64,000 bases of DNA, taken from contig CM114271.1 of assembly GCA_050084515.1 (NCBI GenBank), positions 9,114,001 through 9,178,000 of the forward strand, written 5' to 3'. Shown here in pieces: positions 13,000-58,509 of this stretch (positions are counted from its first letter, which is position 1; each line of letters begins with the position of its first letter). The DNA is from Blasia pusilla (taxonomy: Eukaryota). The notes beneath the pieces are model-generated. The model searched no databases, had not been told where the DNA came from, and saw only the letters and a list, made by a program, of their open reading frames with translations. The translations under genes were made by a program, and so were the position numbers.

Positions 13000-13017
13000 A
13001 TTATTCCATCAGGTGGA

Positions 13018-13080
13018 GAATGAGAATGAGAATAAGAAAGAATAAGAATAAGAATAAGAATGAGAATGAGAATGAGAATG
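13018..13080 (+). repeat. (GAATGA/GAATAA)n hexanucleotide microsatellite
   Basis: Directly visible. Confidence 0.9.
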
Positions 13081-25638: not shown

Positions 25639-28600
25639 TTACACAATACGACAAATACTTCCTTTTTGTCCAAGAGGAGGTACAAGCCTGTTTAACAAGT
25701 CCAAGGTCCTGCGACGTCTTGACCAATGTGAACCATTCTTTTGAATCATAAACATAGTACACCCCAACCAATACTCTTTTTTTGCAACTCTTGCCTCCAC
25801 TGCAAGTTGTGTCTCTTTTCCCTTCCTTTTCTTTGACTTTGTTGATATTGTGGAAGGGCCAACATTTGCTGTAGATTCAAACAAAATTGCAATATCACTA
25901 CCAACATCAACCAAACAAGTTGGGCAATTAGGATAACGTTTCTTTCCCTTACCAGTAGTGTAATAAGTCTTTTGGGCTATTCGAGTTAGTCTATCCTTTG
26001 ACATGAAAGGATTGCAAGACAACTGACTTACAAGGATGGATTTATAGATAATCTTGCCCTCATAAATTACAATAGGCACTATTGCATGGGGAATTGCCAT
26101 ATTAGTGAGTTCTGCTTGAACAGATGCAAACACATGCCTTAGTTCATGTCCTAATACCTCCATTTCAATAGATTTGGGATCAATGTCAATATCTATCTCT
26201 TCGTTATCTATTATGAAAGGTACATTGATATCACAACTTTCCTCTACAACCCAAGAATCAATATGGTTCAAATCTTCCTCAAGGTCCTCAAACTCTAAAA
26301 ACTCCCCAATTGGGTGCTCATATATTGGAGACACTATTGTGGATCGGTTATCTTCATGTTCTTCAACATCATCACATGACAGTACTTCCCTTATTGAAGC
26401 TGAATGAGGCCATGTCTCGGCCTCCACATCCCATGGATGCATCCACCACCTTCTCTTTGCAATTGGCAAGGAACTCTTTGGAGACATGTTCAACAACCTC
26501 AAAAGCTCTTTTGCTGCATCCAACCCTTCTTTAAGAGCATCAACAACCAACTCATTAGTCCCAACCAATGAATGATCAAATAGATTCGGAGCTTGGTCTC
26601 CTTCACCAAGAGGATGCAGTTTTGCCCAAATATGATCTTGCTTATGATGTGAACAACGTATCTTTAATCCTTCTGGTCCATACTCTAGGACAGCCAATCG
26701 ATTCACTCCTACTGCACTATCCAGTAGAGATCCAAAGTCATAGTTTCTTTCATGACCACTCATGCCAACTACCTTGCTGAAAAAAATCTCACAACAATCA
26801 GATCCTAGCAAGTGAAATGGAACTTGAAGATATGGAAACTCGTCTCGAAATGCACAAACTAAGAGTATAATGAAATGGCAAGACATGTTGATATCATGGA
26901 AAGCTTGAATAGAGATCATATTTTTTTTGGTGACACATCCTGTATTCCCTGTCACATAATGGTCACCGTACTTCAACCATAGCCTCCACAAACGGAGAAA
27001 CCAAGATACCTTAGATGCCAATACTATACGAGTTCTCAAGTCATGCTTCACAGAGAAGAAAATGTCGATGTAATCTGCACAAATCTCAAGGTACAACTTA
27101 GTCCCAAAACTTCTATCATGTCGAACATCTTGCCGCTCAAACATGTGGTGTAGGCAGGCTTGCACTCTCCTAGATGCTATCCGTTGTGGGCCAGCCCAGT
27201 TTTGTCTGTCTGTCCAATTCACATCATCCTAGTTCAAGCCATGCTCCTCAATTTTATAGTGGTTATAAATTGACGTCACATAGGACAACGATGCATGTTG
27301 GTCACCAAGCACTAGCATGGCAGCACATCTGTCAAATGGGTTAAAAGCCTTTTTCCCATTGTGGGATGGATCTTGGTCTCCAAAGCCATACAAGTCTCCA
27401 TTTGGAAGAATGGACACAAAATACTGCCACCCTTCCCACCCTACTTTATACCTTGGAAAAGAACCATTCATACCAATATAATCTTCCATCATTAATTTCC
27501 TACGACGAGCATCACCATCACTAGCATGCCCCAATAAAGGGCCAACATTGGCTCTACAATATTCATCCCACATGGATTTCGGCTGCACCCAATGTTCCCT
27601 CACCCAATCTGCTTTGAATCGATTACAAGTTGCGGTGGCACAAAGCGCCAATTTTGGCATTTTCTCATGCAAAGGATTCACAATTACTACTCTAGCATAC
27701 ATACCTTTCGCATATTTCTTAAAAGTACTCACAATTTTATCATACCCTTCAGTACCTTCCCCAACAAGTACTTCCAAGCCAAAAGAGCATGTATGTTCTT
27801 CCGAGGGACCACAAAAACCAATAAGCGTGTCATATTTAGCCTCCCATCTATCACAACAGTTGTATCAAATTAGAACATAAACCCAATATAAAACAATAAA
27901 CATGACATATAAATGTGCAAAGTAATATAATCATTATGTTAGTGCATATCCATACATATATCAAGGCCAACTTTCTCCAGAGATTCAAACACACCTTGGC
28001 CTTTCTTTTATCCTTGTTTCATCCTCAACGAACATTACAGGCACATCTCCCTCGATTCTAAGTAGTTATTTTGATGCAAATAGTACTTGGGAGACCTCTT
28101 GAAATATCTCTTTTTGTAGCCCAACTCTAAAGGGTGGTAGTTTTGCTCTGTCACGTTTCAAGGTCTTCAGACTTGGCCCTCCCAAGTTTTCCGAAAGTAG
28201 TGGGCAACTTGTCGGCCACCAAACTGGAACATGGCTTGGGAAAAGGCTTTGGTTCTCTTACTGTAACGATAACCATTGGCCACTCTCTGCAAATTCTTAG
28301 CCACATATTTCAAGAAATCCCACAACCCCTCCTTACCAACAAATGCCCCATCCCTATGTCCATTTACTATGTTCTAGAGAAATGGTCTCAAATCTTTCCT
28401 ATCTGCAACTACTCCTAACATGTCTTCTAGCTTCTTTCGCCTAGTACTCAAGGCACAAATCCTTTGTGATTGTTGTGCCAAAAGCCAAAGTTTTCTCCTA
28501 AATAGAGTGTTCAATTTTCCCACATGCTCCCTCAACTTTGTCTTGGTCAAGTACTTCATGGCCATCCCTCTTTGAGTTGTCCTGCCTCCTCTATGCACTA

Positions 28601-30038
28601 AAGCTTCCGCTTCCCTGTGCACCCGACCACGAAAATCATCCTCCCGCTTAATGGAGTCACAATGACTACAAGTGAGGTTCTCAAACCCTCCCCCATTACT
28701 TGACAATCTAGAGCAAAGCTTGTGCCTAAAACAACCTTGTATACATACAATTGACCTACTACTTGGATTGAACACTTGCGCTGAAGTGGTAAGCTCACAA
28801 TCCCAAATAGTTCCTCCTGTCTGATCATCTAGTATGGCCTTCACATCCATCAACTCTCCTCTCCATTGTACGTTTGACTCCCATAAGCCCCAACAAAGCA
28901 AACTTAGTCCAAAATCAATGGAGGAAGCAAACCCACCTTTTCCTAAACTGCTTCCTTCCTTGAAGGCATCAGGGTTAAGGAATTTGGTAATGGAATTTTG
29001 AGACGGAAATAAGTCCCTAGGATCTGCCTTCTTTGGTCTTTCCTTCTTCCCAGACCTCAAGGCAAGTTGGGCAGTGATCTCTCTAGTGTCAAGAGCATCC
29101 AAGTGATATCGACTAACCAACTATTGTCGTAGATTATGCTCCAAATTGGCCTTTCTTGGGCACATGTCTGTGTGCAACTTGCCACAGATTATACATCGTA
29201 CCTTGAACAGGTATGACTTGTGTGCAAACTGCATATCAGCAATAGATGGCATCATAGAGAACACTATTGTCTCACCCCCAACCTCTACATTCATTTTCTC
29301 AACTATTCCTAAACCTACGGTGATATGATGTTCATGATCCCATTGAGGTTGTTGTATAATGTCACTGGGAGAAATCAATGTACTAGGCAGACCCCGTCTC
29401 TTACAAAAATTCTCCTTGTGCTTAGGGTTGTTGAGATGCTTAGTCTTATAATTGTTGAAGCAATTTGCAATTGATTTTAAAAATTGGGAATTAGTTGCAT
29501 TCCCATAAGTCTCCCGACACTCTAAGCACTCTAGGTGCCCTCGGACATCTTGCCCCTCATCCCAAGTTCGCACTCTCCACTTATGCTCATCATATCCTTG
29601 TCGCTTTACCCAATCTTTAAGCTTGCTCCACTCCTCATTCCAACTCTTTCCTGCCACCTCAAACATAAGCAGTGACTCAAATGAACCTGTGACAGGCAAT
29701 GTATCGACTACTTGCTCTTGGGTTGTGGCTTCTGTATGTGATTGAGACCCAACATTTGTGTCCTCCATGGTAGACACAATAGCAGCAGATGAATGCGAGG
29801 ACACAATTGCAACCCCCCCAATACATCTAGAGGCTTGTTGTGCAATCACAAAAACACTCCCTTCAAGTTCACTAATCTCAATGAGGTTCTCAATAGGATG
29901 TCTAACTCTACCAGGTAGCCTATCATCCCAAAAATCAAATTTAAAGTCAACTGCCCTAGCACATCGAGTGCGGAAGTCGGCCAGTGTTTGTCCTTCTTTG
30001 AAGGACAAACACAAAAATTGGTACATCATCCTTCCCAT
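25639..30038 (-). pseudogene. P-element/THAP9-like DDE transposase with N-terminal zinc-finger-like regions (in-frame stops, probable intron ~27870-27960)
   Basis: VPVMFVEDETRIK (~28050-28010), DTLIGFCG, GHASDGDARRRK, DQDPSHNGKK (DxxH), DRQN, GSDCCEIFFS; ORFs 29121-30038, 28374-29120, 27229-27777, 25639-27222. Confidence 0.75.
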
Positions 30039-30433
30039 CCTTTTCTACTAGTCTCACTGAGTTGGAACTGGGGTTTGCCATTTGTACAAGGTATCAAAGG
30101 CATTCAAACTATCATATACGTAGTTCAACCTGTCATGTACCACAACAATAAACAAAAGAGGTCACAAATCAAGGTTTGTTATGCTTCTACAACAATTGAT
30201 AGCCATGCATAACATCAAATAACTATCCTCATTCAAACTTCAAGACTTAATCCATTTAATTCATTACAACCCAATCAAAACGTCCATTCAATATGAGTTA
30301 TAGTTTTGAGTCTGAAGATGCAAAACTCCTGAAAACATAAAGGTAATTTGTGCAAAATCTTACACGTGAAATATGTAATGAGACTATAGTCCCATTGTGC
30401 TTACCTACAAAATTTCTCTATCGTATTCATTAA

Positions 30434-31129
30434 TTAAACCCAAGAGATATGTTGATAATCTACAATGCCTAGTGTGGGGACAATTGGATGATCAGGGCAA
30501 TAGATCATCCATCTGATCTCATTATGTGCAACATGACGCCAAGATTCTCTGCCAGGTGCAAAACCTTCCTCCTTGCTCGCTACCAAGCAACCCAAATGCC
30601 ATGTCTTTGGACATCTCAAACATTGGACGACCTTTGCTAGATGCTCGTTGCGATGCGGCATGTTGCATGCCACACATGTATGGAGAAGGCAACACTGCAC
30701 ATCAAGTGGCAAACATCCATGATAGAAGAAACAAACACAGAAAGGTTGGGGGCACTGTCTTATATTAGTTTGAATGGAAGCCATTCTACCACACTTGAAA
30801 CATTTGTATGTCCCGGAGGTACACTCTGGATAATACCAAGGGTCGCTCACCTTGTCCTTTGGAATGACCACAACAGGGCAATGAGACACCGTCTGGCCAA
30901 CTTTATGAACATGGTGAAATTGTCGATGGCAAAGCCCATCACAAATCACTGGATCTCCATGCAAATCGCAAATAGCACACAAATGAGGACTGCATTGTCG
31001 CAACTCAATATCTGAGAATAAGGGAATTTGTGGCAACATCATGCTCATGTTCTTCCTAGAGAGTGGATTATTCTTGGCTTGCCCCTTGTATCTTGCCGTT
31101 ATGGCTACTAGACATTTAAACATGGACAC
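30434..31129 (-). CDS. Tandem PHD-type zinc fingers (NSD/EDM2-like arrangement); probably the last exon of a spliced and possibly decayed gene
   Basis: CAICDLHGDPVICDGLCHRQFH..C..WYYPEC; CFKC..CPQPFCVCFFYHGC; CLLHTCVAC..QCLRCPKTWHLGC..IYCPDH. Confidence 0.78.
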   Translation of the reverse strand: MSMFKCLVAITARYKGQAKNNPLSRKNMSMMLPQIPLFSDIELRQCSPHLCAICDLHGDPVICDGLCHRQFHHVHKVGQTVSHCPVVVIPKDKVSDPWYYPECTSGTYKCFKCGRMASIQTNIRQCPQPFCVCFFYHGCLPLDVQCCLLHTCVACNMPHRNEHLAKVVQCLRCPKTWHLGCLVASKEEGFAPGRESWRHVAHNEIRWMIYCPDHPIVPTLGIVDYQHISWV

Positions 31130-32322
31130 TGAATTAGTTATAACTTAACCAAATAGTAGATATAGGCATGCATAATTGTAGACAAACTAAAAGACTTAAA
31201 AGTCAATTGCTTAGAACTCAACTAAATACCAACTCTCAAAAAAATAAACTATGCTTGAAAAGGAAGTAGAATCCTTCCTAGCGTAGTTCTGAATGCCTGC
31301 TGCAAACGCTTTGAAATGTATGTTTGATAACACACAATGCAGCATAAGCATAGAATAACTGTTTTTGCTAGTATGAGAGAAGAAATAGGCTACAGACATA
31401 AACTCAACATCCCCACATGTTGAACACACCTGACAGGTTGGATAGTTACCTAAGACCACATAACCAATCTGTGCCCTTGTGACCGGCGTGGAAAATAGTA
31501 TCCACAAAAACTGCCAAGGCTTTGGGCAATGAATCAAGGCTATTGAATGTGTTGAACAATTCTGGTGCTACCAAAATGAGAGAAAGAAAGATTGTACCAT
31601 TAAGTAGTGCCTGTCACCTTGTGAGGAAAAAAAGGGTATCACCACGACTCAAATAGAGGATAGATAGAGCGGGATGGGTAGAAAAAGCAGCCGACCTCCT
31701 TTCTCAATGTTTGGGAACAAGAATCTACGGACAATCTGATGTGAGATTGGGAGAGGGAGAAGAAGAGTGTGAGGATGGGATAGCTAAAGCTCGCTCACCA
31801 AGCAAAAGTGGCCGGACGCGTGAGAGCTGCAACGGCAATGGCAGCAACCACAAAGGGCAGAATCTGTGAGAGAGATATGGTGATATCAATTTTTTTTCCC
31901 AAGCTTATCCTTCTTCACTTTGATCCGAATGAAGCCAAAGCGACATTCCCTTCTTGCCTAAAGAGTCTTCACCAGAACAACTCAGAGGCCGCAATTCATC
32001 TAATGGAAAAGCGTGCAACATGTAGTTGTCAAACGCATGGTAGAACATCTCCCATACCCACATCAATCCAGTTCAAATTCAGATGGATTTCACCACTCCC
32101 AGAAAAGTCCCTGAAGTGGCACAACGCACAAATAGAGGACTGGAGATCCCATCCAATAAAAAAAACAATTGGGGCTCAAAGAGCCAACCAGGTCTAGGGC
32201 CACAACCAGCATGATTGAAAAGAAAAAGGGGATGCCTCAACAAGATAACTTAACCAACAGCAGCATACACAAGGAATGATTGAGTGAACTGATGTTTTGT
32301 CCTCAAGAACCAAGATGGCCAT

Positions 32323-33169: not shown

Positions 33170-33643
33170 TGGAAGTGAGACCCCCGAGAACACGAACCTC
33201 ACTTTGAGCGCCAAACGGCGTCTCAAGGGTAGAGGATGGAATGGGAGTTTGGCGTTGGAACTCGAAACCCAAACCTGATCCAAGGGAGTGGATTTCGTAA
33301 GCCACACTTGGATACCAACTCGCGATTCATTTCGTGACTCGCGGTTGGTGCAATTGACAGTTGGAACCGCCGGGCATGCAAATGCCATTGGAGGTTCCTC
33401 AACCAACCAGAAAGTCTATCCCAAGTCTTGAAAGACTTGCTTGTGTTGTAAACCATGAAACTAGGAAGGTTGAGCTTGATGAGAGGTCGAGTCGAGAACT
33501 CAGAAAGTTAGAACGCTAATTGACCCAGACCCGACTAAGGGGAATTCGTGTTTGGATGCGGATCAAGATTGAGAGCGTGTCCTACTGAATGGATGCTTCT
33601 AAAAAATAAAACATTTATGTTTAAGGAGAGTAGGCACATGACA
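33170..33643 (+). repeat. Partial LTR homologous to the 3' half of 34276-35291
   Basis: Shared blocks AAAGTCTATC.CAAGT, GAGCTTGATGAG and GAGTAGGCACA..ACA. Confidence 0.65.
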
Positions 33644-34275
33644 ATAGAAACCTTGGGCCAAAGGCCGTTGTAACTAGATCAGGCTAATGTTCCAATAAAA
33701 GAATACATGGATTTGGAGATTTAATGCTTATGTTGATTAAAATTTGTATGTGGTAGTGCATGGCAATGAGTAGTTCTTCATAGGCTTAGGATATAAGTCA
33801 AGAGGATAGAAAAGGAGTATTTGAGGTGAAAACTTGGATTTAGATAAGCACCTAGAACAGGACCAAGTGTTGTGCGACTAACACTTGGGCTTGGGGTATC
33901 CTTATTCATGATAGAATGAGTGAACTTAGTGATGCGCCTAAGTCGAGTATGAGAGCAACCCAAAAGTAGTATGACTTGTATACCGTGTAAACAAGTGAGT
34001 TGTTTACGAGTTATGAGCCAGAGAAGTCTTAGGTAGCAAACTTAGCTATCTTATTTCATAGGTTAGATGAGTTCCAAAAAATTGATCTAGGCTAATCAAA
34101 GAGGAGATGCTAAATGATGCTGAGTGTTGTAGGCGAAAGCTTAAGAATTAAGCCAAACGAGGAATTTCCTGTTAGTTACTATAACACAATTTGATATCAA
34201 GGGCTCGGCTTCCCAAAAGACTTGACATTAGAACGTTGGCGTTGATGAGGGCATCGATCTCTACAGAGGAATGAG

Positions 34276-35291
34276 TGTCGCAACCCTCATAACCAAACGA
34301 GCGGCAAGTGGAACATTCAAACTCTAGCGGGCTCATGCTAGGATGGTTTATGCTTTGGAATGATCTCTTGGAAGAGATGCAAGAGACACAAGAGATGAGA
34401 CGCAAACAAGGTTGAGTGTGTCATGCATTTATGGTTGCGACTAGGAAACCTGGACAAAAAATGAACCAATAATTGAGAGAAGTGGAGTGTAGGAAGGTTG
34501 GTTGCCAAAGAGGGAGAACTGGATTTGGAACATGACTAGCGTTTGGGGTTTCTACTATATTTTAGACCATAACTTCTAGTTCCAAGATGCATTTGGGACA
34601 AATAAGATGGCGTTGGAAAGAATATGCAAGGCCGGTTCCAGCGCACTAAAGATCTTAGCAAATGCATAAGCACAAGCTGAGATATTGGCTGAAAACGAGT
34701 GTATGGGGAATCAGGTTGAGGGCCAAAAAGAGGGGCCCGAGTGTCTCTTCCCCAAAGGTGGGGGGAGGGCGGGGATTCCCAAAAGTACTAGTAAGGGGGA
34801 GGATGTCCAAGAGTGCTCGGGACTCGAAACCCATTTTGGGACGCCGCGGGGTTACCCAAGGGCACGGAATGGATTGGGAGTTTTGGCATTGGGATTTGAA
34901 ACCCGAACCAAGTCTAATAGAGTGGATTTTGGAGGACCCTATTGGATTCCGAGTCGTGACTCATTTAGTTGTTCTTAGTTTGGAGACTCATATAAGCTCC
35001 ATTGGAAAGTTGAGACCGCTTAGCGCGCAAAGGCCATTATAAGTGTCTAGACTAACCACAAAGTCTATCACAAGTGTCGGAAGACTTGCCCGTGTTGGGG
35101 ACCTAGGAACTAGGGAGGGTGGAGCTTGATGAGGTGCCGAGTTGAGAACTTGGTGGGTTGGAAGGTCGATTGATCCAAACTAGACTAACATGAGTGTGTT
35201 TGGGTGTAGATTGGTGACGAGAGTATGTCGTACTGAACGTACACTTCCACAACATTAAAGATTGACATTCAAGAGGAGTAGGCACACAACA
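34276..35291 (+). repeat. Putative LTR (~1.0 kb), TGTCGC...CAACA
   Basis: The same start occurs at 45488 and, inverted, at 19728; the end is defined by loss of similarity to 33410-33643; followed by TTGGCACCC (PBS-like). Confidence 0.65.
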
Positions 35292-44108: not shown

Positions 44109-45129
44109 CGTTTGTTGTCATTCCTAGCACTCTCAAGGCCATTGCAACTCCGAGATGCATTTGGGATGAATAATTTGGAATTGAAAAGCTTATTGGGAGA
44201 CATTTCCAATGCACCAAAGATACATATGGACACACAAGTAATAAAATGCGATTGGCCTAGAATTGTTGGAATGAGATCTTGGGTTGAGGATCACCGAAAG
44301 TGGCTCAAAAAGGAGTCTTTGAAAGAAAGTGAAATTTTCTAAAACTGTATATCTTGGGGAGGGTCTCCAAGGCCCCTTTGGAGCCTGAACTTTTTTTGGG
44401 AAGCATGGGGATTGAACTAGGAAGACAAGACGGATGGAGAGGTTAGCAGTAGGGTTTCATTACCAAGCCAAGTCCAAGTAGTCCCATTTTGGATGCTAAT
44501 ATTGGACTTTGATGAGAGGCTTAGATATCGAGTTTCAATTAAAGACTTGTTTGAGGTTGTATGGGATAGTTGGGATCAGCAAATGGACTATCATTGTTGT
44601 AGGTCCCTACACTATCAAGGAAGTTTGTCCCAAGTCTTGAATGATTATCAAGGAGAAACTTGAGGGGAGAGGCAAGAGACAAGGAAAGTATTTGAATGGA
44701 CTAAGGCTTCAAGATGGCGATAGTGGATGAATCATCATTCAAATGTTGAATCGAGTGTGACAAACCAAGAGAAGAATCATTACCTTATCAATAGCCAAAG
44801 AAAGAGAGTGTGGCCCCTAACATGCCCACAAGTTCTAAGCATGAAAATGTCCCATATTTGAATCCTTCAACATGGTGGTAAATTCCAAATCCAAATGACT
44901 TGGTACTTCATGTTCAAATAATGGATCTAATGGAGACCACATTAAGTGGATTGCAAGTTGGAGATGGATTGAGCATCCATCTGTAGCAAGAAACTTTGTA
45001 AGCCCAATTTTCCCACTCTATTCACAAGAATGGGGTGTTCATATAAGGTCAAGGAATTCCTCATTGAATTCAACCTTTATTGTGAAGCGTTACAGGCCCA
45101 AGAGGAGGACAAGATCACTATGGTAATAA

Positions 45130-45539
45130 AATTTCTAAATAATCCTGTGCTCCAATAGTGGATGGACCATCGTGAAGAAGATTCAGGCACTGCGTCCTCT
45201 TTGACTCTTTGAGTTGCGAGGAGTTCAAAATGCTTACTGGTGATCGATTTACTCTAGAGTACGAAGATTTTGGAATTGTGCGGAGTTTGTGCATTTGAGG
45301 CAAGTAGGGTCCATAAGCACTTACGTTTGTGAGATTAGCATAAAGTTGATCTCATTTCCTAGTGGGCTTAAACCAAGGGTTGGAAAGGCCCTCTTTCAAA
45401 TACCCAACCTACTAAAGACCCATCCGGAACTCTTGAAACTAGAGGAGAAGATTGGGGACGATGAGATTCAAGGCCACAGACCCTTTGTGTCGCGACCCTC
45501 ATAACCAAACGAGTGCCAAGCGGAACATGAAAACTCTAG
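45130..45539 (+). mobile_element. Chromovirus gag fragment followed by the first ~50 bp of an LTR (45488-45539)
   Basis: SGLKPRVGKALFQIPNL..ELLKLEEKIG is homologous to ORF 19837-20046; TGTCGCGACCCTCATAACC at 45488. Confidence 0.7.
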
Positions 45540-45899
45540 GAGGCGCGGTAGGAGGAGAGGAGGAGAGGAAGAGAGGAAGAGAGGAAGAGAGGAGAGAGGA
45601 GAGAAGAAACTACTTTCAACCCAAAGAGATACTTTTTTTTGAAGAGATTTTAATGTGATTTGAAGAGTGTTTCCGTTGGGTTGAAGAGAGGAAACTTTTT
45701 GTGTGGATTTTTTTGCACTTTTTTTCTCAGTGCTTAGTCATTTCCATAAATTTTTTTTTCCTCTTCCACATTTTGGCAACCCGTCTGAATCCGACAAGTT
45801 GCAACTTGCACAAAATTTTAAAAATTGAAAAAATCATTGAAATCACAAATGTGGAGCAAATCACTTTTTCCATCCAAGGTCTGGAAACAATCTATCATT

Positions 45900-48773
45900 T
45901 TCCCTTGGTTGAATAGAGTTCAAGCTCACAGTGAAGGTTGTGGCAAATGAAAGTACAATCTAAGACCTCATTTTGCATCCTCAAAGTGGTTTGTTTAAAA
46001 TACTTCGCACTTCTTTGAGGGATAGAATTGGTTGGTGGATTCCTATTCCTACCTCTGACTATCTTAAAACTACAAGCAACACATAGTACATGTGATTGCA
46101 AGGGAAATACCTTTTCCCACTTGTTTCTCTTTGGATAAAATCATCACAAGAACATGTGGGAAAGCAACAGATGTGCATCACATACACCCTTGTGACACTT
46201 GAATTTACAGTGCTGTTCTTGACCCAATACATCCTTCCTATTCCATTGCCACTCTGAACGTCTTTTGTGGCGATGATTTCCATGTTTGCCTCCCGAGCTG
46301 ATGCGATTCGCTTTGCTCTCTCCACCGTTGGCCTACACATTATGTTTCTCTTCACCCCATTTCTAGACTCAAACAGAAATAGTGAATTGAGAACATCCAC
46401 CTTCTCCGGGTACATGTTGACATCAATCTTGGGTTGAATCCAAAATGCAAAGGTCTCTGTAATGCGAAGATGCTCCAAATTGCCTCCGTCTACGAGTCTG
46501 AAACCGACACTTGTAAGATTCTCCACTTTGTCTTGAGTGCAATTAGTACTTGGAGCAATGGGCCCCATTGTGGGGGTATTCCCTGGAGCTCCAATGGCAG
46601 CGGGATAAGACTTCTGGAAAGCGCAAGATTCATTTGGGAAGAAGAAGTACTTCAAATGATCCCTGATCCTGGTGAAACGATCAAAGGTTTTGAGCCCCTA
46701 GAAGCCAGGAAGTGGTCGTCCAGTCCTTGTACAATTCTTATTCAGGAAAGTGCCGCATGCTCTCCTAATGCAATCAGATCCTGCCCTGCAAGTGGGTCCA
46801 CGTCCAGGGTTGCTTCGAGATATATGCCACCTTTTGAGGTTACAATCCACCTTAATGACCGGAATCCCATACTGTTGAACTACCCCAGAGACTGGATGTT
46901 GTGAACTTCCAGCAACGGAGGCCTTTTGAAATAAAACATTCACTGATTTTGGAGAAGTTACTTCTACTCAAATTTGGGAGCAATCTGGGGTCTCCGAATA
47001 CCTGGGCAGCGTAATTTCTTCATCCAAATCAGTCACTGGGTTCGTTCCTTGATGCTGCCTTTTCACTTGCCTGAAGTCAAGATACTTATCTGGTCTCCAC
47101 AAGTCTTGCTCGGACTGCTCTACCACCATCTATATGGGACGTCTTGAAACACGCCCATGAATATCCCCACCAATGTGGACATCTTGCTCGAGGGGAGTTC
47201 TTGCTACGCACCGATTGAAGGCTTCCACATAGAGTTTCTCATCACCAAATCTCACAACGGCCCTGACATAGAGCTCGTAAATCGCAGGTCCCTTTCCTTT
47301 GGTTATGCCTATTTTGAGGAAGATATGGGATGCTGCAGACTGTAGCATTGCCCTTGCCTGGTCTTGTTGGCATGCCTCTACAAGTGAAATTCTTTGGCAT
47401 GCTTGTGACGACCTCCAGGAGGAATAAACACTCTTTGATCCACTTGTGTTGGGGCAGAGGGCATTTTCATGAATGTTCAATCCCTGCAACGACGGAAATG
47501 TGAGTAGGGAAAAAAAATAGCTCTATAAGGGAAGAAAATAGCAACCTATCGGAACCCGACGGGTTAGAAGTCGGAGGCATCCCATGAATGACTGTGCAAC
47601 CCGTTGGTTTCCGACGTGTTGCAACACCCCATGAACCACCTACTACAACCCGTTGGATTCAGATGGATTGCAAGTAACTTTGGCCACTCCGGGTTGGAAG
47701 ATCCAAGTGCAAGTCATCAGAATCCGACGGGTTGCACATGGATTTTCCAACCTCCGACTTGAAACGGGTTGCAAGTCGGAGGCATCCCTGGAATGTCCCA
47801 AGAACCTCTTATTCCAACCCAGCACCCCGAAACCTCCTACTGCAACCCGTCGGAATCGGAAGGGTTGAAAGAAGCAAGCTGGTCCGGTCTCAAAAATCCT
47901 TGTGCAACCCGTCAAATTCCGTTGGCTTCCAAGAAGTGTCCACACACGAAGTTTTGTAACATGTCAAAATTCAACGGGTTCCAATTAACTTGCACTGATG
48001 CAACCTGTCTGAATGCGAGGAGTTGGAGACAGACGCAACCTATCAAAATGCGGGGAGTCGGAGACAAACGCAACTAGTTGGAATCCGACGAGTTCTAGAG
48101 AGACGCAACCTGTCGGAATCCGATGGGTTGTAGATTGAGTTAACTCGATGGATTGCAAGCCTTGCAGCTTGCAATCCATCGGGGTCAAGCTATTTGCAGA
48201 CCTTGTATACATGCAACTTGTAATCCGACGGGTTGCACACTCATGCAACCAGTCGGATTCCGACGGGTTGCACACTTAGGCAACCAGTCGCATCCGACGG
48301 GTTGATTGGTTTCTATGGTTTGAAATCCCTATCGTTCCCACGCTTTTCAACTTGAGTTGCAACTTTTCAAACAATTCTCAGCATGAGCTCGAAAGGACAA
48401 AATACGGAACTCACCTGCCGCATGAAGTTTCCCCATTGTCTCATTTGTATAGTCCACCAATTGAGCCAAGAGCACAACTCTTTGTACTTCCCCTCAATCG
48501 CATGCTTCCTTCACCACCCACGAAGTTCTTTTTGGCACTCCATAGCCTGTTTCAAGGTTTTGGTGTCCTTGCAGCGTTGGAGCAGAGTGACATGCTCTGT
48601 TCTCTTATTCTCCTTGATGCAAGATTTGGTGTACCGGGTCATAGACTGTTGCCAATGGAAAGCAACCGACCTTTCCCTCTCTGGTTGAACCTCTCCACCC
48701 TAGAACACTTCCTTGATAGCAATCCATCCAGGTTGTGCATTTTCCGCCATGAATCCATAAATTTTTGGAGGTG

Positions 48774-48810
<37 letters not shown>

Positions 48811-49318
48811 CCTTCACCACCTCCAATAAGAGTAACCAACACATCTTCAAACTGCCAACGTCTTCTGCTTTTACCTCACAGATAAATATAGTTTTGAGTC
48901 ACTTCTCCACATGGTCATAAACATAAGATCCCATGGTCAACCATCCATTCAACCCTCTGTAGCAAACATCAAAGCTTACCTAGCTGCCGTAGAGATCTTC
49001 CCCTTCCCTCATTCGATCTATAAGATCGAGGCCACTCGACGGCCACATAGTTGACATTTTGAAGATATAAGCTCTGGATCCTTTGCCTCCCTGGCCCATG
49101 AACTGCCATCTCTGAATAAATGGAAATCTTGAGTTAGTCTTGATTCTGGAAATGGCATCCATTTCGACCATCTTTCCATCAAGTACCCCTATTTGATGCA
49201 GCAAGTTCCGAAAGCATTCAGGATCAGCGAGAAATGCAAGATTTTCCCATAGTTGTTTCTCCTCAGCAGCCGTGATCTCACTTGGCCCAAGGATTCCAAG
49301 CTGTTGTTCACAAATTTT
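45900..49318 (-). pseudogene. MULE-type transposase, copy C: DDE core, intron 48414-47484, C-terminal SWIM zinc finger
   Basis: Homologous to 11140-11860; GT-AG intron joins WGNFMRQ|GLNIHEN in frame; SWIM YVMHICCFPTCSCDDF...PCNHMYYV in ORF 46059-46655. Confidence 0.82.
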
Positions 49319-51489
49319 GGGGGCTGGTATTCTGGCAGGAGAGAGGAAGATAGGAAGAGAGGAGAGTCTCTCTTAAAAAAAAAGGGCCAAATCCGCCTCC
49401 TCTCTTCAAAACTTTTTGACATATTTGAAATTTTTGTTTGCTTTCAAATTCATGAAATCTTTAGAAGAGAGTATGTAGTGGTCCACATTCGGGCCTAAAG
49501 AAACCTCTTTTTCCAGGGGGTGAAAAACAAGTAGACATCATAAGACCACTACAAACATTTTTCCATCACTCTCCATATGAGCCAAAGTTTCTTCACATTG
49601 CCTCTCTCAGTCTACAATAAGCTGTGCCTAGGGGTATTTTTTTTGAAGGACCATTGGCAAATAATTTGACCAGAAGTAGCAATCTTATCTCAATGAAAGG
49701 TTCAAATAAAGACTCTAACGATGGTCTCAACAGAGTGTGGTGCTTTTCAAGGTTTAACTTCTCGGAATATTTGGTTGACATTATGGATTGACATATCTTC
49801 TTGCAAAAGAAAGGCACAAGGAAATGATTGTTGACTCTTCTTGCAGAAGGCATCAATACTCATCATACATTATGGAAAACCATTGGCAACACAATACCAA
49901 AATGAGAATTGTTGAGCTTCCCCCATTCCCAAGTGTCTCTGAAGTGTTAATGTGTCATGAGACCTCACCCGGATGCGCATGGGGTACGATGCCAACCTCT
50001 CTTTTTGCAGGGATTGTTGCCTGCATCATGGCCTCCCCTGAATTGCCCCATAAGGAATGGTGTCTGCTCAAGACCAAATTTGTGAAATATGAACACACGA
50101 GACGATAATTGAACCAAAAGATTGTTAGCTGTCTAGAGTAAAGAGGAACTGATGTCCCTTCATTCAGATCCTAAATATGAGAAACCGAAAAGCTGCACTC
50201 CTCCCAATCCGTCGGAATTTTATAGGTTGCAACTCTAGCAACCGGTCGGAATCAGATGGCTTGCATCCCTTGCAAGCAAGCTCACCATAACAAAGGAAAG
50301 ATTTTGAGAAGTGATTCCATTCCACCCTGCACCTACAAAAATCCAACAGGTTGGGAATCCGAAATGGCAATCCGACAAGTAGTAGGAATCCAACACGTCT
50401 TAGAAAAGAAAAGAAGCCTACGACTCGTTTGACAATACTAGGGGAATGAGCCAAAAGTGAAGAAGCCCGCCACAATGCCTCAGAAAATGGTCTTATATAT
50501 AAAGAGTCTGATCACTCAAGCAGCCAGCCTGTCGGAATCCGACATGTTGCCTGGAAATGGTTAAAAAGTTGCACTGGTCAAAAAGTGAAAAGTTGCAACC
50601 CGTCGAAATCCGACGGGTTGCAAAATAAACATTCTGAGTAGCTAGACGAACACAATCGACAAGTCCAAAAAAAATATTCAGCAAACTTTTACAAACACCA
50701 TTATCGTTTGAAAAAATCTTGTCCTTTATTACATGCGAAGGAAGCTCGGAAATGTACATTTGATCTAGTCTATGATTTCTTCAGCCTTGTCATGTACAAA
50801 TTTACTCCTTACTCTCCTAGGTTCCTGTACAAAAGGAATGTCTTGGGATACAAGTGGCTCCTCTAGCCGATTGTAGACGGGGATCGAAAATGTTGGCGAA
50901 TTCGAGAGCCTTGGCATCCCCCTAGGTACACCATAACGGTCCCATGTAACCTGATTTGAGTCCCACCGCCTTCCTTGGCAATAAATCTTGTACGCTCTGC
51001 AAGGTGACATCCATCCAGTATCAATATGTGCTCCGTCCTTGGAGACACCATCATGGCAATCCGACATGTAGTAGGAATCTAGCACGTCTTAGAGAAGAGA
51101 GGAAGCCTAAGACTTGTTTGACGAAACTAGGGGAAGGTGCCAAAGTGAAGAAGCCCGCCAGAATGCCTGTAAAGTTGGACTAACAGGGAAAGTCCAATCA
51201 CTCACGCAGCCAACCTGTCGGAATCCAACAGGTTGCTTGGAAGTGGTTAAAAAGGTGTAGTGGTCAAAAAGTGAAAAGTTGCAACCCGTGGCAATCCAAC
51301 GGGTTGCAATATGAACTGTCGGAGTACATAGACGATCACAATCGACAAGACCAAAAAATATATTCAACAAAATTTTACAAACACCATCATCGTTCGAAAA
51401 AATCTTGTCCTTTATTACATCCGAAGGAAGCTCGGAACTGTACATTTGATCTATTCTATGAATTCTTCTGTCTCGTCATCAAATAAATC

Positions 51490-54400
51490 CCTACTCCAAA
51501 ACGCTACAGTCAAACTGGGTCCTTGAGTTCTTTGAACTCACTCGTCATCGTCCGAGAGCTCTTCCAGAATTACTGTCAGCCTTGCCCTCTTCATTTTCGG
51601 AATCGTGGTAATTGACGATGGTGTCACTACCAATGGTGGGTCTGGAACCGGAGCTCTCGGCTTCGGAGGAGAGTTGTACGCCCTAACTAGCGTGTCATAA
51701 TTTTCCTTTGCCTCTTTGCAAAGATCAAACAGTTCCTACCTTCCCTCAAGGCAGAGAATGTTCCTGCCACTATGCCAGGCGCCTCTCATACTCGCCCCTG
51801 AAAGGCCCACTAAGTCGAACACCAAGTCACCCGGCCTTGAGCAGAGTTCGATGAGCGTTTGCATCATCGCTGGCAACTTTTCCCTTCCTCCAAGTAAGGG
51901 GGTACCATTTTGCATGTAAATTCCCGGGGGATTTTATAAACTATCTAAGCTGTACCCACCGGAGCATGGATCCATTGGATTGAGGATCTGAAAACACTTG
52001 GAAGTTGTGCTCGGGCCTTACAAAATAGTAGACAAAGGAGTGGTCCATCTGTAAATAAGTAGGTTGGAAACAATGTCAGCAACAAGAAAGAGCTAATTTC
52101 AGTATGCAACAACAAGAAAGGTCTACTATCACTATGGTGACACAATGTGCAACTCGTCCCCAAAGAACTTCGCTTAATCATCGAGAACTTAGTTATAGTC
52201 CTAACATTGGAGCAACCTGTTAAAGTCCGACGGGTTGTTTTACAAGTGTTAGTAATTTTTTTGCCATGAGCAACCCGTCGGAAGGCGACAGGTTGCTGGC
52301 TTAGAGCAGCCCATGGTTGGCTAAGAGCAACCCGTCGCTTTCAGACGGGTTGCATCATCTAGAAACACAAGGAAAAGCATAAGTACTTGCAAGCCGTTGG
52401 GTTCTGACGGGTTGCATTTACCCAATGGAAACTTGCGGTAAATTTGAAACTCGTTGCTTTTAGACGGATTGCACCACCAAAGTCTCCAACTGAGACAATC
52501 CGACGGGTTGCATGCAGAGATGCAACCCGTTGGAGCAAGACAATTTGGATATGGATTTAGAGCCCTTACCCGAATTTGACTTGTCGCCGATTGGAGTGGG
52601 TACTCATTCTTGATGACCCACGATTGCGCCGTCCTCCACTTCAATGACCTCTTGACGCACTGCACGTTGAAGAGCTCGTCCTCGCTCCCTCCAGTCAAGA
52701 CCAAGAAACAGCCCCTGTCACTGAGATAAGCGTCTGCAAAGGAAAACATGAGCGTGATCTGGTCATAAGAAAGAGGGACATTCCAGTCTGGGACACTGTC
52801 AGACGGATTCTCGTCCCACAAGCGCAATCCCCAGGGCAAAGCAGCAATGAGGAGATCCACCATCACCTCCTCAACCTCCCCATGGACCATCCAGGGAGCG
52901 TGCCCGTTTTTTTGAATCTTCTGTCCCAGCTTTGTCAATTTGTCGATGGCGGGTGTCGACGCTTGGGAACTGAAACTTTTCAGCTCATCCTCAAGATTCG
53001 TGCTGTGAAGGATGACGCTTGTCCGGTCTTTGTTTCTCTATGTCTTCCCAAGGATGATGGAGTGTATTCCACATCCTGGACTGCTCCCTAGGACAAACTT
53101 GGCGCCTCTCGCTTCCGCTTCTCCCGAGTCTGCGGTTGGCTTGTTGGGGTCTCTATGACCTCAGACTCTGGTGGAGTTTTCTTTGCGGAGGACCTGGTCC
53201 GACCCTCTCTCCCCGCTCGCCCAGACGATTCCGGCTCTTGCCTTGAATCTTCAGCCTCTCTTTAGGAAGACTTGGCCTCGGAATTCTTCGATCCCCTCGC
53301 CTTGGCTTTGAGACCCGCTGTAGATTTTTCCTTGGCGGTGACGACCTTGGACACCAACTCCGCTGTCTCAAGGGCTTGCTCCTCCGCATCTCCTTCGAAG
53401 AAGTCTTCAGGCTACACAAAATTGGGGATGTCGTCCCTACCTGCGGCCACTGCATCATAGAGGAGGCGTAGATCTTTCTCCGTTGTGTCCTCAGGGTCGT
53501 TGAAGTCCAGCCAAATCGGGAAATTCTCCATCTCCCAATCGGACATGCTTTGAGCCATCTCCATTTCGTACATGAAAATGTCTCTCCATTAGGCGGAGAA
53601 GCCCACAATTTGCAGGTTGTCGGTATTTTTCGCCATGTACCTGCATTCTTACAATGGACGAGGTACCTGAACACCATGCGTTGGGGGCAGCTCTTAGTCG
53701 AGATGCATCGGCCGCCTGCTCCTGAAGATCTCGCTTCTTCTTTGCGAAATCCCTTTTTTCGCCTCTATTTCTTCGTCAAGGTCTGCTTGAGGGAGGATGC
53801 GATCCTTGAACATCGTCTTGAAACCAGGGTTTTTAATGGGCTTGTCTTGCATGTCATCAAGCCAAAGTTCAAAATCTTCAGCACTCTCCAGGTTTGCTTC
53901 CTCCGGAACTGGCTCTATTCTTTTCAGCTCCGCTTGGAGATGCACGAGCATGGACTTCTCGAGAAGCCACAACGCATCCCAGAATGACCATTCACGGAGC
54001 TAGTGGGAGATCACTGGATCAGAGACACCCGAAGGATGGTGTGTCGCCCTCTTTTGCGCCTCTGTGCCCTCGAGACTGATTTTCATCAGTCGGATTCATC
54101 TAAATTTGCTAATTCCAGACAAGGAAAATCGATGCACGCGATCGAGAGACACTTTCTCCCCAATCCGACCCTGCGGATCTTCATCCCTCTTCCGCTGGCG
54201 CTTGATGATCTCCTTCAGCTCCTTGTAGAAATTGGGGCCAAGTTCGGGGTTGAGAATGGCGATGTAGCGCTGCATCTTGCTTGCCGTGTACTTCGTAGCT
54301 GCAGATACTGCAACATTGATGAACTTTGCACGCTCAGACACAGACACGTTCTCCCTCCGCTCCAGCTCCAATGAAGCGCTCTTCTTGGTGGCCTGTATCT

Positions 54401-56279
54401 TCGACCAGCAAAGGATTGTCACGGCTGCATCTTGGGAAATAAATGTATTTGCCCAAGTCTTTTTTTTTATTTGAATTGCCGGCATCTCATTTACAAGGGC
54501 GTTGCCCAAGAACCCCTTGTACTCTGCCGAGTGCGTCGTTAGCACTTTCTTCAGCCAATCGCAATCCTGGATCCAGTGGTGGGTGACATTCCCCTCAGAT
54601 ACAATCCTACACATCCGAATTCAATATTAGAAATTTTGCTAGGTACATGGGTTCCTGCAACTGGTCGGACTCCGACAGGTCATCACAGCTCATAGTCGAA
54701 ATGGAAGCAAGGAGCTAAATTTTGCAACCCATCGGAGTCCGACGGATTGCATTCAGATTTGTGATTGCCTGGTTACAGCAGGTCGAAGTCCGATGGGTTG
54801 TCAGATAATTTGTATTCAGAGAGTGGTCTCCGCGGGAAAAGTGAACAAATCAACCCGTCAGAGTCCGACAGGTTGCGCAATTTCAGTTAAGGTGCAATTT
54901 GACCACAAAAATATAGCTTTGCTACTTCCGCTCTGCTACTCTTCGTAGATCTCTTACTTCCGAATGTAACCTGTCGGACTTCGACGAGTTGCTTTTAGCC
55001 AGAAACATCCAAAAACAGCTTCGAGTCTAGCAACCCGTCGGACTCCGACGAGTTGCTTTCTTCAAAAAACATCCAAAAATAGCGGTGAGTTGAGCAACTC
55101 GTCGGACTCCGATGAGTTGCTTTCGGCCAAAAACATCCTAAATGAGTGATTAGTCGAGCAACTCGTCGGAGTCCGACGAGTTGCTTTCGGCCAAAAAGAT
55201 CCTTAACCTGTGATCAGTCGAGCAACTCGTCGGAGTTCGACGAGTTGCTTTCGGCCAAAAATAGTGGCGACTCAAACAACATGTCGGAGTCCGACGGTTT
55301 GCAGCAAGAGGAAACTTATGTGTTCATGGCATGCATGGCCATCTCCACCGTCGCCATGTGATAAGGGTATGGATGTAGCACCACTTCCTTCACGCAAAAT
55401 GTGCCTCCAATGAGTTTGGGCGCTCCTTTGCAAACTAGGTCCACGCCATGAACCTGTGGTTTCCATCCTAGATGAAGAAATACAGGTTCAGCATCCAGCT
55501 GAATTCCGTCCCCTCTATCGCCCTTCTAAATTCCTGATCTCTCATCCTCCAGAATGTGTCGAGCGCTTCCAAGTCCTCCTCCGTAACCAGCGCTTGGGTT
55601 CCATGGTCCTCGTAAGGCTGAACATAGAACGGAGGGAAGCCGTCCACGTAGGATGCTGTCGCTGCCGATTGTTTCAGCTTCGCAATATCCTCATCAGACA
55701 GGCTGGCAAGTCCACTGGAACCTCGTCGATCCGATAGAGGTCGATTTCTTCCGCCGGGCTTAGGGACGAGGATGACCGCTCTCCTGCTTCTTCAACGATG
55801 TCCACCATCTCCACGCTGGCGGTCCTCATGACCTCATCGTCCGTCACTTGAACTTCGGCCGTTTCCGCTATATTGATTGTGTCCTCGGACTTCATCGGGG
55901 ACATTTCCTGCATCTCAACACTTTCGGTTGGACGTGCAGGGCTTTCTTCAATGGCAATTTCTTTTTCCCTCCGAGCTTTTGCCAATTCTGCTCTCCTCAC
56001 CGACGCGTCCAGATGCTTCTTTTCTCGCTTTTCGTTGGCAATCCTTTTCTTCAAGGCCTGCGACGCCTCAGCCTCTGCATTTTGTTTTTCGAGCGCCTCC
56101 TGTACACGTTTTGCAAGAAGCTCTTGCTTTTGCATCTCCTCTTCCCTTTCCCGCTCCTCGATTTCTTGCTGCCTTATCTCATTGGGCGAACGAGACCCTG
56201 GAGATGGTGAAGCAAAAGTCCTCATGGACTAGGGAGTGAAGCTCCTAGCCTTGTTTGCTTGAGATTTTTTCCTCGTCAT
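51490..56279 (-). pseudogene. Spliced accessory gene: coiled-coil - ParB-like domain - helical/basic linker - beta-class N6-adenine/N4-cytosine methyltransferase-like domain
   Basis: FFI*DGNHRFMAW (55467-55453); motif IV-like VDLLIAALPWG (52860-52828); YLSDRGCFLV; motif X-I-II REKLPAMMQTLIELCSRPGDLVFDLVGLSGASMRGAWHSGRNILCLE (~51885-51745); putative introns 55319-54607 and 52569-52049. Confidence 0.78.
54655..55300. repeat. Intronic array of the CAACYCGTC-N7-GACGRGTTG palindrome; ~64-65 bp period over 54965-55250
   Basis: For example CAACCCGTCGGACTCCGACGAGTTG at 55031. Confidence 0.9.
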
Positions 56280-56689
56280 TGTTTCCGAAAATGCCTCCTA
56301 TGGACAAGGAAATTGCTCTCTGTGCACGATGAATCGGCTCGAGGAATCGCCTTTATGAGTCGCCTTGCTGATGTCGTGATGAGTTGCCTCAATGAGTCGG
56401 CTTGCTGATGTCGCGATGAGTCACCTTGATGAGTAGCTCGAATCATCTCGCGATCGTTTGCTCAAATCGTCTCACGATGAGTCACCGTGTAAAGCGCCCC
56501 TTGGTATCTGGTCAGCTGCTGCGCGGAAGAGCAATTGAGATCGCCAAACGAAAAACCGGAAATGAGCGAGCCTTCCCCTATTTATACTTTTCGAGCCGTT
56601 GGGCTGACTGTTGGGTCGCATCGTCCTTTTGACGGCGACGGGCCAGCCGTTATGGAAGTCTGGACGTAAAAAAAAACCAACCCAAGGGC

Positions 56690-57370
56690 TTCGACAGGTT
56701 GCACGCTTCCCGAGGGTTCAAGGCATTCGTCCTCGTGGCAACCCGTCAGAGACCGACAGGTTGCGCGCCTCTGTCGTCTTTGGACAAGAACACGAGGTAC
56801 CCGCGCAACCCGTCGGAGACTGACAGGTTGCGCGCCTCCGTCGTCTTCGGACAAGAACACGAGGTTCCCACACAACCCGTCGAAGACCGACAGGTTGTCC
56901 GCCTATGCCATCTTCAGACAAGAACGCGAGGTACCCGGGAAACCCGTCGGATTCCGGTGGGTTGCACACTTCCCTTGTCTTGGGACGACAAGGCGGGCTT
57001 CCCGCGCAACTTGTTGGAGGCAGACAGGTTGCACGCTTCCTTCATGTAAGCCTTACAAGGCGAGGCACTTGCGCAACCCGTCTGAGGCCGACGGGTTGCG
57101 CGCCTCCACCATCTTTGGGCAAGAAGGTGCGGCCCGCGCAACTCGTCAGAAAGAAACGGGTTGCACGCTTCCTTAATGTAAGTAACACAAGGTGAGGAAA
57201 TTGCACGAACCGTCTGAGGCCGACGGGTTGCGCGCCTCCGCCGTCTTCGGGGAAGAAGGCGCGACACCCGCGCAACTCGTCGGAGATCGACGGGTTGCAC
57301 GCTTCCTTCAAGTTAGCGTTACAAGGTGAGGCACAAGCATGCAACCCGTCCGAAGCCAACGGGTTGCATG
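56690..57370. repeat. Intergenic array of roughly ten CAACCCGTC-N7-GACRGGTTG palindromes at ~67-70 bp period
   Basis: Units with variable 7-nt spacers (AGAGACC, GGAGACT, GAAGACC, TGAGGCC, GGAGATC, CGAAGCC). Confidence 0.9.
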
Positions 57371-57628
57371 CTTCGCTTATATTGGGTTAATAGGCGAGGT
57401 ACCAGGGGTCCCTATTGGTTATCGACATGTTGCACGCTTTTCTATCCCTCGGGTAACAATGCAACAACGCATAGTTCCGAGGCAACCCATTGCAATCAGA
57501 AGGGTCACCAAATCTACCCTGAGTTGGAAAATCCCGCAAAAGTCCCCAACGATTGGTTGCCTAAGCATATGCAAGCGATATCTTGTGTTGATGCTAGCAA
57601 AATCAACTCTCGATGGAATCTTCTAGGA

Positions 57629-58051
57629 ATGGACAATTATGTGAAGCTCACTTGTGGCAGTCATCTAGCGGCCCTTCCTCAATCAGAAATCGTTTGACCA
57701 CAAGCTCATGAGTCTTTCATAACAGTGGATGAAAATTTTCTCTCAGTTCCATTTCTTCTCCAAATTGGAACCATCTTTGTATCCAAGGATGTTAGGGTGG
57801 ACGGTACGGAGGACATTATAGGTGAGACAGTCCAGCCAGTGATTGCATACCGTAAAGTATGGAATCTCCTACGTCTAGCAAATGGTCAATACAAAGTTTA
57901 CGGCTTGCCCCTGAATTCCTATGTTTCCCAAGTAGACGGTCGAGAATTTCCTAGTGCACCGAGCTCTACGTTTGCAACTCCTAGCTCAGTAGATCCAGCT
58001 TCGACTCCAGCTTCGACTCCAACTTCACACGCTCGTAACAATGTTGTACTT
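57629..58051 (+). pseudogene. 5' end of the MULE transposase, copy B
   Basis: MDNYVKLTCG..DENFLSV..IGTIFVSKDVR matches ORF 12115-12999 (-). Confidence 0.8.
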
Positions 58052-58509
58052 TGTAATGTACAAGTGTTTCTAATTTACAGTCGTTTGTAGAGTTCGATCC
58101 CCAAGAGGACCATTGTTGGATGAAAAGAGAGGGTAAAGTGATTATTATGTTGTAAAAGTAGTGTGGTTGATTATGTAATTCAAATGTAGTATTCCAGTAA
58201 CATCTTCCGATCCTTCTTAGTACCCATGTTTTCTTCTTCAATTCTCTCTAGTGGAATTTAAATCACGCTCAGGCAAATTGTTCTCTCGACATCTAGGAAC
58301 CTCACAGAGATCTCAACAATAAGGTTGGCTTCTCCTACTTTCGGAACTCAATCCATCTTGGCAGGCTACTCTCTATCAAACATATTTCATACAACTCCAT
58401 GTTGATTATTCCATTGATGAGAAAGGTGTGTCTGATTTCACTCTTCACGCTGCAGACCCAAAAAGACTATCCAAACATAAGCATCGCACATCAGAATGAA
58501 TGAATGAGT

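Follow-up and report, generated by a model that had tools for sequence, protein, structure and literature searches.

The 64,000-nucleotide stretch of the Blasia pusilla genome analysed here (assembly GCA_050084515.1, contig CM114271.1, positions 9,114,001 to 9,178,000 of the forward strand; hereafter the window, numbered from its first letter) carries three partial copies, named A, B and C, of a multi-gene transposon that resembles the Mutator-like elements (MULEs). Its non-coding DNA contains many copies of an inverted repeat which an earlier reading, made from the sequence alone, had proposed as candidate parS-like or operator sites. Within the window the repeats are restricted to this element family and arrayed in its non-coding DNA, their arms are conserved above the neutral level, and the changes within them show no structural covariation. 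On balance, we favour the interpretation that a DNA-binding protein of the element itself, sequence-specific and probably dimeric, uses these palindromes as clustered cis-acting sites; the binding, the identity of the binder and the effect of its binding are what we infer from this pattern.

The motif CAACCCGTC-N7-GACGGGTTG matched the window 35 times with at most two mismatches and was absent from 100 dinucleotide shuffles. With up to four mismatches the number rose to 59 copies, distributed over the mismatch classes 0, 1, 2, 3 and 4 as 5, 11, 19, 12 and 12, while block-shuffled controls gave a mean of 0 matches at up to three mismatches and of 0.25 at four. Seven further matches had exactly five mismatches, and six of these fell within the same arrays. 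All nine clusters listed in the sequence-only reading exist. All 59 copies, as well as 76 ten-base half-sites detected with at most one mismatch, are located within the non-coding parts of the three element copies, the half-sites being found exclusively in the kilobase bins 13, 17–18, 45, 47–48, 50–52 and 54–57. No half-site at this threshold occurs in the retrotransposons (two Ty3/gypsy elements), in the element at 25.6–31.1 kb or in the long open reading frame (ORF) at 38.3–42.4 kb, in line with the confinement that had been claimed.

The genes of the element are ordered as transposase, a divergent promoter region with array A1 or B1, a small Lys/Glu-rich ORF, array A2 or B2, and a third gene. 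The arrays, features without strand, fill the divergent promoter and the DNA upstream of the third gene; others lie in two inferred introns and in a 3' flank. Array B1 (56693–57507) consists of 10 palindromes (56739–57366) with a period of 67 bp and a super-period of 132–134 bp, plus two degenerate copies, and occupies the DNA that separates the divergently oriented small ORF (ATG at 56225, minus strand) from the N-terminal transposase ORF (ATG at 57629, plus strand). Two linker types alternate in B1 (56739–57408) and give rise to the super-period; both are partly self-complementary by eye, and RNAalifold detected no conserved linker fold. Homologous to B1 is array A1 (13186–13737) of the inverted copy A. 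It has six palindromes, four of them at the 67-bp period, and is situated between the transposase (ATG at 12993, minus strand) and the small ORF (plus strand). Array B2 (54658–55301) comprises nine palindromes (54725–55301) and one degenerate copy, with a 64-bp repeat present in five units, and ends about 40 bp upstream of the ATG of the third gene (54614, minus strand). Its homologue A2 (17610–18485), with 12 palindromes and a 76-bp repeat present in three units, stops shortly before the corresponding ATG in copy A (18509, plus strand).

Six palindromes (52213–52547) lie in an inferred intron of the third gene, which has a canonical GTAAGG donor near 52566 and is followed by an exon starting near 51933. 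Another six (50205–51306), in two blocks, are found between the 3' end of the third gene and the transposase of copy C; these blocks form part of a tandem duplication about 690 bp in size (50364–50793 and 51053–51479, 86% identity) with two palindromes per copy. The copy-C array (47542–48305) holds nine palindromes (47542–48270) together with degenerate and indel copies, in part at a 35-bp period, between pieces of the transposase ORF and hence in an inferred intron, and a single palindrome (45777–45801) is located about 260 bp past the 3' end of that ORF. The tandem arrays are imperfect, and their periods (35, 64, 67, 76 and 132–134 bp) are no consistent multiples of 10.5 bp, as would be needed for helical phasing. 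Matches between arrays extend over 30–46 nt and are centred on the palindrome, the linkers of different arrays being unrelated. With two copies of the 64–65-bp unit in A against five to six in B, and four copies of the 67-bp unit in A against 10 in B, the arrays have grown independently in the two element copies.

The distance between the arms is as constant as the earlier reading had reported: 25 of 26 stringent half-site pairs are spaced by 7 nt, and 34 of 39 right halves have a partner at exactly this distance (at most three mismatches). For three of the remaining five, a partner stands at 4 or 6 nt; these look like small-indel derivatives. The five spacers quoted in that reading are all present. 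Its description of conserved half-sites around a free spacer was correct for the half-sites; the spacer has a consensus of its own, GGA-N-TCC (G45 G45 A53 N T43 C48 C42 in the 59 copies), whose central base alone varies freely (G24 A15 C11 T9). Spacer positions, in contrast to arm positions, played no part in the selection of copies. One extra base on each side is also kept (G in 45/59 and C in 46/59 copies). With a spacer consensus and a conserved flanking base, the full unit is thus a palindrome of 27 nt, GCAACCCGTCGGA-N-TCCGACGGGTTGC, in which just the base at the centre is left free. The spacer is softer than the arms and depends on the array. It reads GGA[G/C]TCC in A2 and B2 and GGA[A/T]TCC in the copy-C arrays, and diverged spacers (GGAGACC, TGAGGCC and others) occur only in the promoter arrays A1 and B1 and in the intron array of the third gene. 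The five central bases are GANTC in 26 and AANTC in six of the 59 copies; the chance of a GANTC centre in an odd palindrome is about 1 in 16.

A scan of metagenomes for the two arms at gaps of 0–14 nt served as a background control only. It yielded at least 119 loci with one exact site each, and among the matches listed only two (L008 and L068) had a second site at up to three mismatches and none was a member of the family. The spacer lengths in this background were broad, with 7 nt in 12 of the 119 listed matches and 4 nt as the commonest length (21/119). In a scan of viral contigs, five contigs with one site each were found, none of them a family member.

The strength of conservation was assessed in 14 contiguous 67-bp units from B1 and A1, in which the mean pairwise identity was 0.83 for the arms, 0.49 for the spacer and 0.57 for the linkers. 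Since such units duplicate whole and all their parts are of equal age, the gap in identity reflects constraint on the arm sequence, which is conserved above the neutral level. Within the arms the A/T positions hardly vary: by hand count they changed in 10 of 354 cells, versus 123 of 708 at the C/G positions. The coding sequences of copies A and B were compared over small numbers of codons (114–182). The small ORF (dS 0.72, dN/dS 0.24) and exon 1 of the third gene (dS 0.72, dN/dS 0.16) were more diverged at synonymous sites than the N-terminal part of the transposase (dS 0.18, dN/dS 0.65); synonymous sites of the flanking genes, used as a neutral yardstick, gave a pS of 0.46. The dN/dS values of 0.16–0.24 at a dS of about 0.7 indicate that copies A and B diverged as living lineages under purifying selection.

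Recognition of the sequence by a protein is favoured over a role of the folded palindrome by two observations. Compensated double changes in the 12 arm and spacer pairs numbered 10, versus 11.2 expected under independence, next to 3–27 one-sided changes per pair, and RNAalifold recovered from 13 units the palindrome stem only, with a covariation term of +0.12 and a double change in one of eight pairs. Secondly, the stem sequence is identical in all arrays. The same lack of an excess of compensated changes means that arm-to-arm conversion, which would leave symmetric variants in excess, is not visible either. The sequence-only reading had likewise preferred recognition of the sequence to a hairpin, and the counts agree with it. 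The argument it gave, that constant spacing with free sequence points to a dimeric protein, was weak, as the spacer does have a consensus, and a hairpin whose 7-nt loop varied would give the same picture, so that the spacing fails to separate a protein site from a hairpin.

The view that the palindromes act as structures, i.e. as DNA cruciforms or RNA hairpins, and not as protein-binding words is therefore weakened, and we regard it as unlikely. As structures they might serve as small-RNA precursors, as pause or termination signals or as hot spots of array expansion, and several properties would suit such roles: single strands of the perfect copies form stable folds (−12 to −17 kcal/mol, z −5.5 to −8.9), the loop is of constant length, and RNA would retain G:U pairs after many of the one-sided changes, these being C>T or G>A. 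Degraded copies, in contrast, fold no better than shuffled sequences (−6.6 kcal/mol, z −1.6), and a pure structure would not require the common stem sequence found across the arrays; nor are compensated changes in excess. The linkers add no conserved fold of their own, and a search of Rfam returned no match.

If the palindromes are protein-binding sites, the binder may be the transposase, the small charged protein encoded between the arrays or the methyltransferase-like product of the third gene. Dense arrays in promoters, introns and flanks would concentrate this protein on copies of its own family, and the bound copies would be switched on or protected from silencing, as is the case with VANC in VANDAL elements and TnpA in Spm. 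Alternatively or additionally, the arrays would help to assemble the transposition complex. Several points weigh against an element-encoded binding protein. A DNA-binding domain was recognised neither in the N-terminus of the transposase nor in the small ORF or the third protein. The perfect stem of 12–13 bp is equally what a hairpin or cruciform function needs (the same −12 to −17 kcal/mol for single-stranded DNA), and the centres of the half-sites are about 16 bp or 1.5 helical turns apart, which is unusual for a simple symmetric dimer. The conservation of the arms is partly inflated by their use in finding the copies, although the B1 units are contiguous and none was dropped. Family specificity, lastly, was assessed within the 64 kb of the window.

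A functionless motif, generated as a by-product of tandem slippage and concerted evolution and persisting as a palindrome by chance or mutational bias, seems to us rather unlikely as well. The copies do reside in tandem arrays that expand and contract, and they are decaying. Among the 123 changed cells at the C/G positions of the arms, 92 show C>T or G>A, and each of the four consensus CpGs is intact in 31–41 of the 59 copies, its main derivatives being TG and CA. Such a pattern would be expected of methylated, now decaying transposon DNA. Slippage, however, copies whole units, yet the arms have retained an identity of 0.83 next to 0.57 in the linkers and 0.49 in the spacer. Moreover, the same palindrome recurs in arrays with unrelated linkers and different periods, and it has outlasted a divergence of copies A and B of dS ~0.7.

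The palindromes may also be sites for a host protein, either a recruited transcription factor or a host silencing factor, which we consider very unlikely. The palindrome core contains two inverted CCGAC words, which resemble the core of a plant stress-response element, and the proteins of the element lack a recognised DNA-binding domain; direct support for a host factor there is none. A 27-nt palindrome is far longer than typical sites of host factors, and none of the remaining 43 kb of the window, with its further transposons, contains the motif.

The third gene (51739–54614 in copy B, minus strand, with several exons; in copy A 18509–18934, plus strand) deserves separate consideration. It represents an orphan family: among 1.8 billion representative proteins it has two homologues at E<1e-9, P0001, which its source names a hypothetical protein of the liverwort Riccia sorocarpa, and P0002. 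Both are homologous to the segment 52567–53037, and neither is affiliated with a Pfam family; a homologue search with P0001 returned P0001 itself only. The sequence-only reading had described the product as a ParB-methyltransferase protein. Its methyltransferase part corresponds to a weak match of a single 65-aa exon: 51739–51933 resembles the AdoMet-binding motif I of beta-class amino-methyltransferases, with E 0.0046 and 17.4 bits against PF01555, below the cut-off of 26.7 bits, and E 0.006 against M.RsrI. The canonical form of the catalytic motif IV in these enzymes is (D/N/S)PP(Y/F/W). At this position ALPW is found in the third gene and DLPT and DLPK in the homologues, none of which is DPPY. 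The ParB part was not confirmed, as neither the ORFs of the third gene (E≤0.01, and E≤5 for the exons 54099–54620, 53697–53999 and 53415–53588) nor P0001 and P0002 matched ParB in Pfam, and a profile of the third-protein family had no match in the PDB. A structure model of P0001, calculated from a seven-row alignment, was too poor for use (pLDDT 47.4, pTM 0.27).

A more speculative interpretation, to which we assign only a slight probability, is that the methyltransferase-like protein runs a self-marking epigenetic system, with the arrays as its address label. On recognising the CpG-rich palindrome, this protein would deposit or read a mark other than 5-methylcytosine (5mC), namely N4-methylcytosine (4mC) or N6-methyladenine (6mA), and the presence of such a mark on the promoters and introns of the element would shield the family from 5mC-based silencing. 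The methyltransferases CcrM and HinfI, which belong to the same (beta) class as the weak match of the third gene, act on GANTC, the sequence often found in the middle of the palindrome. Beta-class enzymes have been described in liverworts, in a preprint on Marchantia DN4MT1, as responsible for genome-wide 4mC at CG sites in sperm, and a transposon-borne relative is therefore worth its own look. The co-occurrence of gene and motif is the extent of the support for self-marking; the GANTC centre and the 4mC of liverworts make it worth stating.

The label parS, which would have the third protein bind the palindromes through a ParB domain, is highly improbable. Partition systems have a few 16-bp parS palindromes near a partition operon and a ParA partner, and encode with these sites a ParB-family protein that combines an N-terminal ParB/Srx domain with an HTH. 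Common to both cases are the palindromic site and the (proposed) binding of a dimer, and the earlier reading had recognised a ParB-like N-terminus in the protein. Length, sequence, copy number and genomic setting of the sites differ, however, and dozens of copies dispersed over the introns and promoters of a nuclear transposon are unlike a partition site. No ParB domain was detected by Pfam or by the PDB profile, the model of P0001 (pLDDT 47) being of no help, and no ParA-like match to Pfam was obtained among the scanned ORFs.

Lastly, the idea that each palindrome is a tiny mobile insertion (a very small miniature inverted-repeat transposable element, or micro-MITE), an outcome which the sequence-only reading had named as contrary to its own proposal and which the unrelated flanks of the palindrome could suggest, is refuted within the window and retains next to no probability, since the copies are periodic in arrays and target-site duplications, searched at k=2–9 with four assumed boundaries, showed no clear excess over permuted controls. 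Direct-repeat flanks were found in at most 1/59 copies at k=3, at most 2/59 at k=4 and at most 1/59 at k=5, the control means at the latter two being 0.58 and 0.06, and in 0/59 at k=8 and 9; these are too few for duplications. The absence of covariation and the single stem sequence also weaken this idea.

In a self-comparison of the window, copy A (12583–18987) was identified as the inverted homologue of copy B (58051–54142), with 76–88% identity. The homology of A and B ends at 58051, from where on the sequence is unrelated and retrotransposon-like. Copy C (46059–49372, minus strand) is partial and has the transposase core in common with copy A (11126–11859). All three copies are truncated or interrupted. 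Terminal inverted repeats and element ends were searched and none was located, the long inverted matches all being palindrome-to-palindrome; the arrays in introns and intergenic DNA are clearly internal.

The transposase of copy A (10952–12993, minus strand) includes the core ORF 10952–11653, which resembles clusters of MULE and ZSWIM1-3 RNaseH-like proteins by language-model features only (score 0.94; 157 shared features). Pfam gave no match for this core at E≤5. The transposase remnants of copy C (46059–49372, minus strand) have a core 77–89% identical to copy A 11126–11859, and inspection by eye shows at their C-terminus a CxC...CxH pattern reminiscent of a SWIM zinc finger. On these language-model features and this SWIM-like pattern, with Pfam silent, the element is called MULE-like with moderate confidence. 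In copy B, the N-terminal transposase ORF (57629–58051, plus strand) contains an in-frame stop at 57695–57697; a feature-atlas search with the transposase N-terminus gave scores of 0.76, which are meaningless. The small ORF of copy B (55468–56225, minus strand) encodes an acidic, Lys/Glu-rich protein between B1 and B2, and its homologue in copy A (13843–15065, plus strand) is followed by a 2.3-kb insertion (15065–17342) with a retrotransposon gag. Pfam has no family for the small ORF, the transposase N-terminus, the exons of the third gene (apart from the weak methyltransferase match) or the R-repeat ORFs, and a PDB search with the 238-aa ORF yielded chance matches only.

Copies A and B are far closer to each other in the N-terminus of the transposase (12115–13008 versus 57698–58090) than in the small ORF (13843–14745 versus 55674–56228), and this lower divergence suggests recombination between lineages or a mosaic origin. 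A diverged repeat with 58–82% identity is present at 18991–20016, 33195–35150 and 44149–45553. It directly adjoins the breakpoint of copy A (18990), another of its copies is located just left of copy C, and an inverted pair of about 750 bp (18994–19728 and 34276–35019) brackets the 19–35 kb region. The repeat may represent the ends of another large element inserted in copy A, or a part of the MULE-like family. Elsewhere in the window, a Ty3/gypsy integrase ORF (7084–8166, plus strand) ends in a PHD finger (PF00628, E 4e-11) and is thus a fusion with a chromatin reader. A run of long ORFs (25639–31144, minus strand) of 529, 211, 248, 307 and 236 aa, without Pfam family and without palindromes, probably is an unclassified large transposon; the last ORF of the run (30434–31144) has weak matches to PHD fingers.

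Family-specific motif arrays with element-encoded regulators have so far been documented experimentally in Arabidopsis (VANDAL/VANC, Spm/TnpA and AtMu1), and they account for the way in which transposons evade silencing and leave the host undisturbed. If a liverwort-type genome has a comparable architecture, the strategy would prove to be old and widespread in land plants, here in a version with a long palindromic, CpG-rich word and a methyltransferase-like gene on the element. If the methyltransferase-like protein were the partner of the palindromes, it would link transposons to the 4mC biology of liverworts. With three candidate proteins and one 27-nt probe, the system is easily testable. 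In searches of open-access text, no paper with such an element was found, nor one with this motif among the papers listed, whose matches were primers or unrelated sequences.

The closest system in architecture appears to be the target arrays of VANC, and the analogy which the sequence-only reading had drawn with VANDAL elements fits the anatomy seen here, i.e. introns, intergenic DNA and tandem repeats of varying copy number. As far as described for VANDAL21/Hiun, VANC21 motifs are dense in introns, intergenic and terminal non-coding DNA, the targets sit in tandem repeats that related copies have in different numbers, and the motif is a 9-bp, AT-rich word (YAGTATTAY) in single-orientation arrays (Hosaka et al. 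2017, PMC5735166). Both are multi-gene elements with a family-enriched motif in non-coding, variably repeated DNA, and both would belong to the Mutator superfamily. In contrast to the VANC21 motif, the unit found here is a CpG-rich palindrome of 27 nt without orientation, and its host is liverwort-like, not a flowering plant. Pfam scans of the small ORF and the third gene detected no VANC homologue, a query with a VANC sequence not being part of the search.

Inverted pairs of motifs are known from maize En/Spm. The TnpA of Spm1 and the transposase of AtMu1c are reported to bind clustered cognate motifs and to activate or hypomethylate their own family; for Spm TnpA, the density of motifs decides the targeting, the motifs contain CpG and the clusters lie at the element termini (Sasaki et al. 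2026, 10.64898/2026.08.24.746577). Clustered CpG-containing motifs are common to these CACTA elements and to our case, the element-encoded regulator being known there and proposed here. The Arabidopsis Spm1 motif CCVTCGCAAA even has the word CCGTCG in common with the half-site, an overlap of 6 nt that may be due to chance. In contrast to the termini described for Spm, the arrays here are internal as far as visible, between genes and in introns, and the transposase looks MULE-like, not of the CACTA type.

A third comparison concerns the transposase of the MULE Muta1, a foldback-type element. It binds tandem subterminal repeats, with binding that grows with copy number and for which a palindromic pattern matters; the repeats are described as 12 bp long, separated by linkers of 3–4 bp and all within a terminal inverted repeat of 145 bp (Liu and Wessler 2017, PMC5499845). 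Muta1, as far as that account goes, thus shares with the element described here the tandem motifs, the palindromic pattern and the presumed superfamily. It differs in scale and placement, for the units here measure 35–134 bp and extend over kilobases of internal DNA, with no terminal inverted repeat found. What distinguishes the present element from all systems compared is the combination of a long CpG-rich palindrome without orientation, arrays located internally as far as visible, another host lineage and a methyltransferase-like passenger gene.

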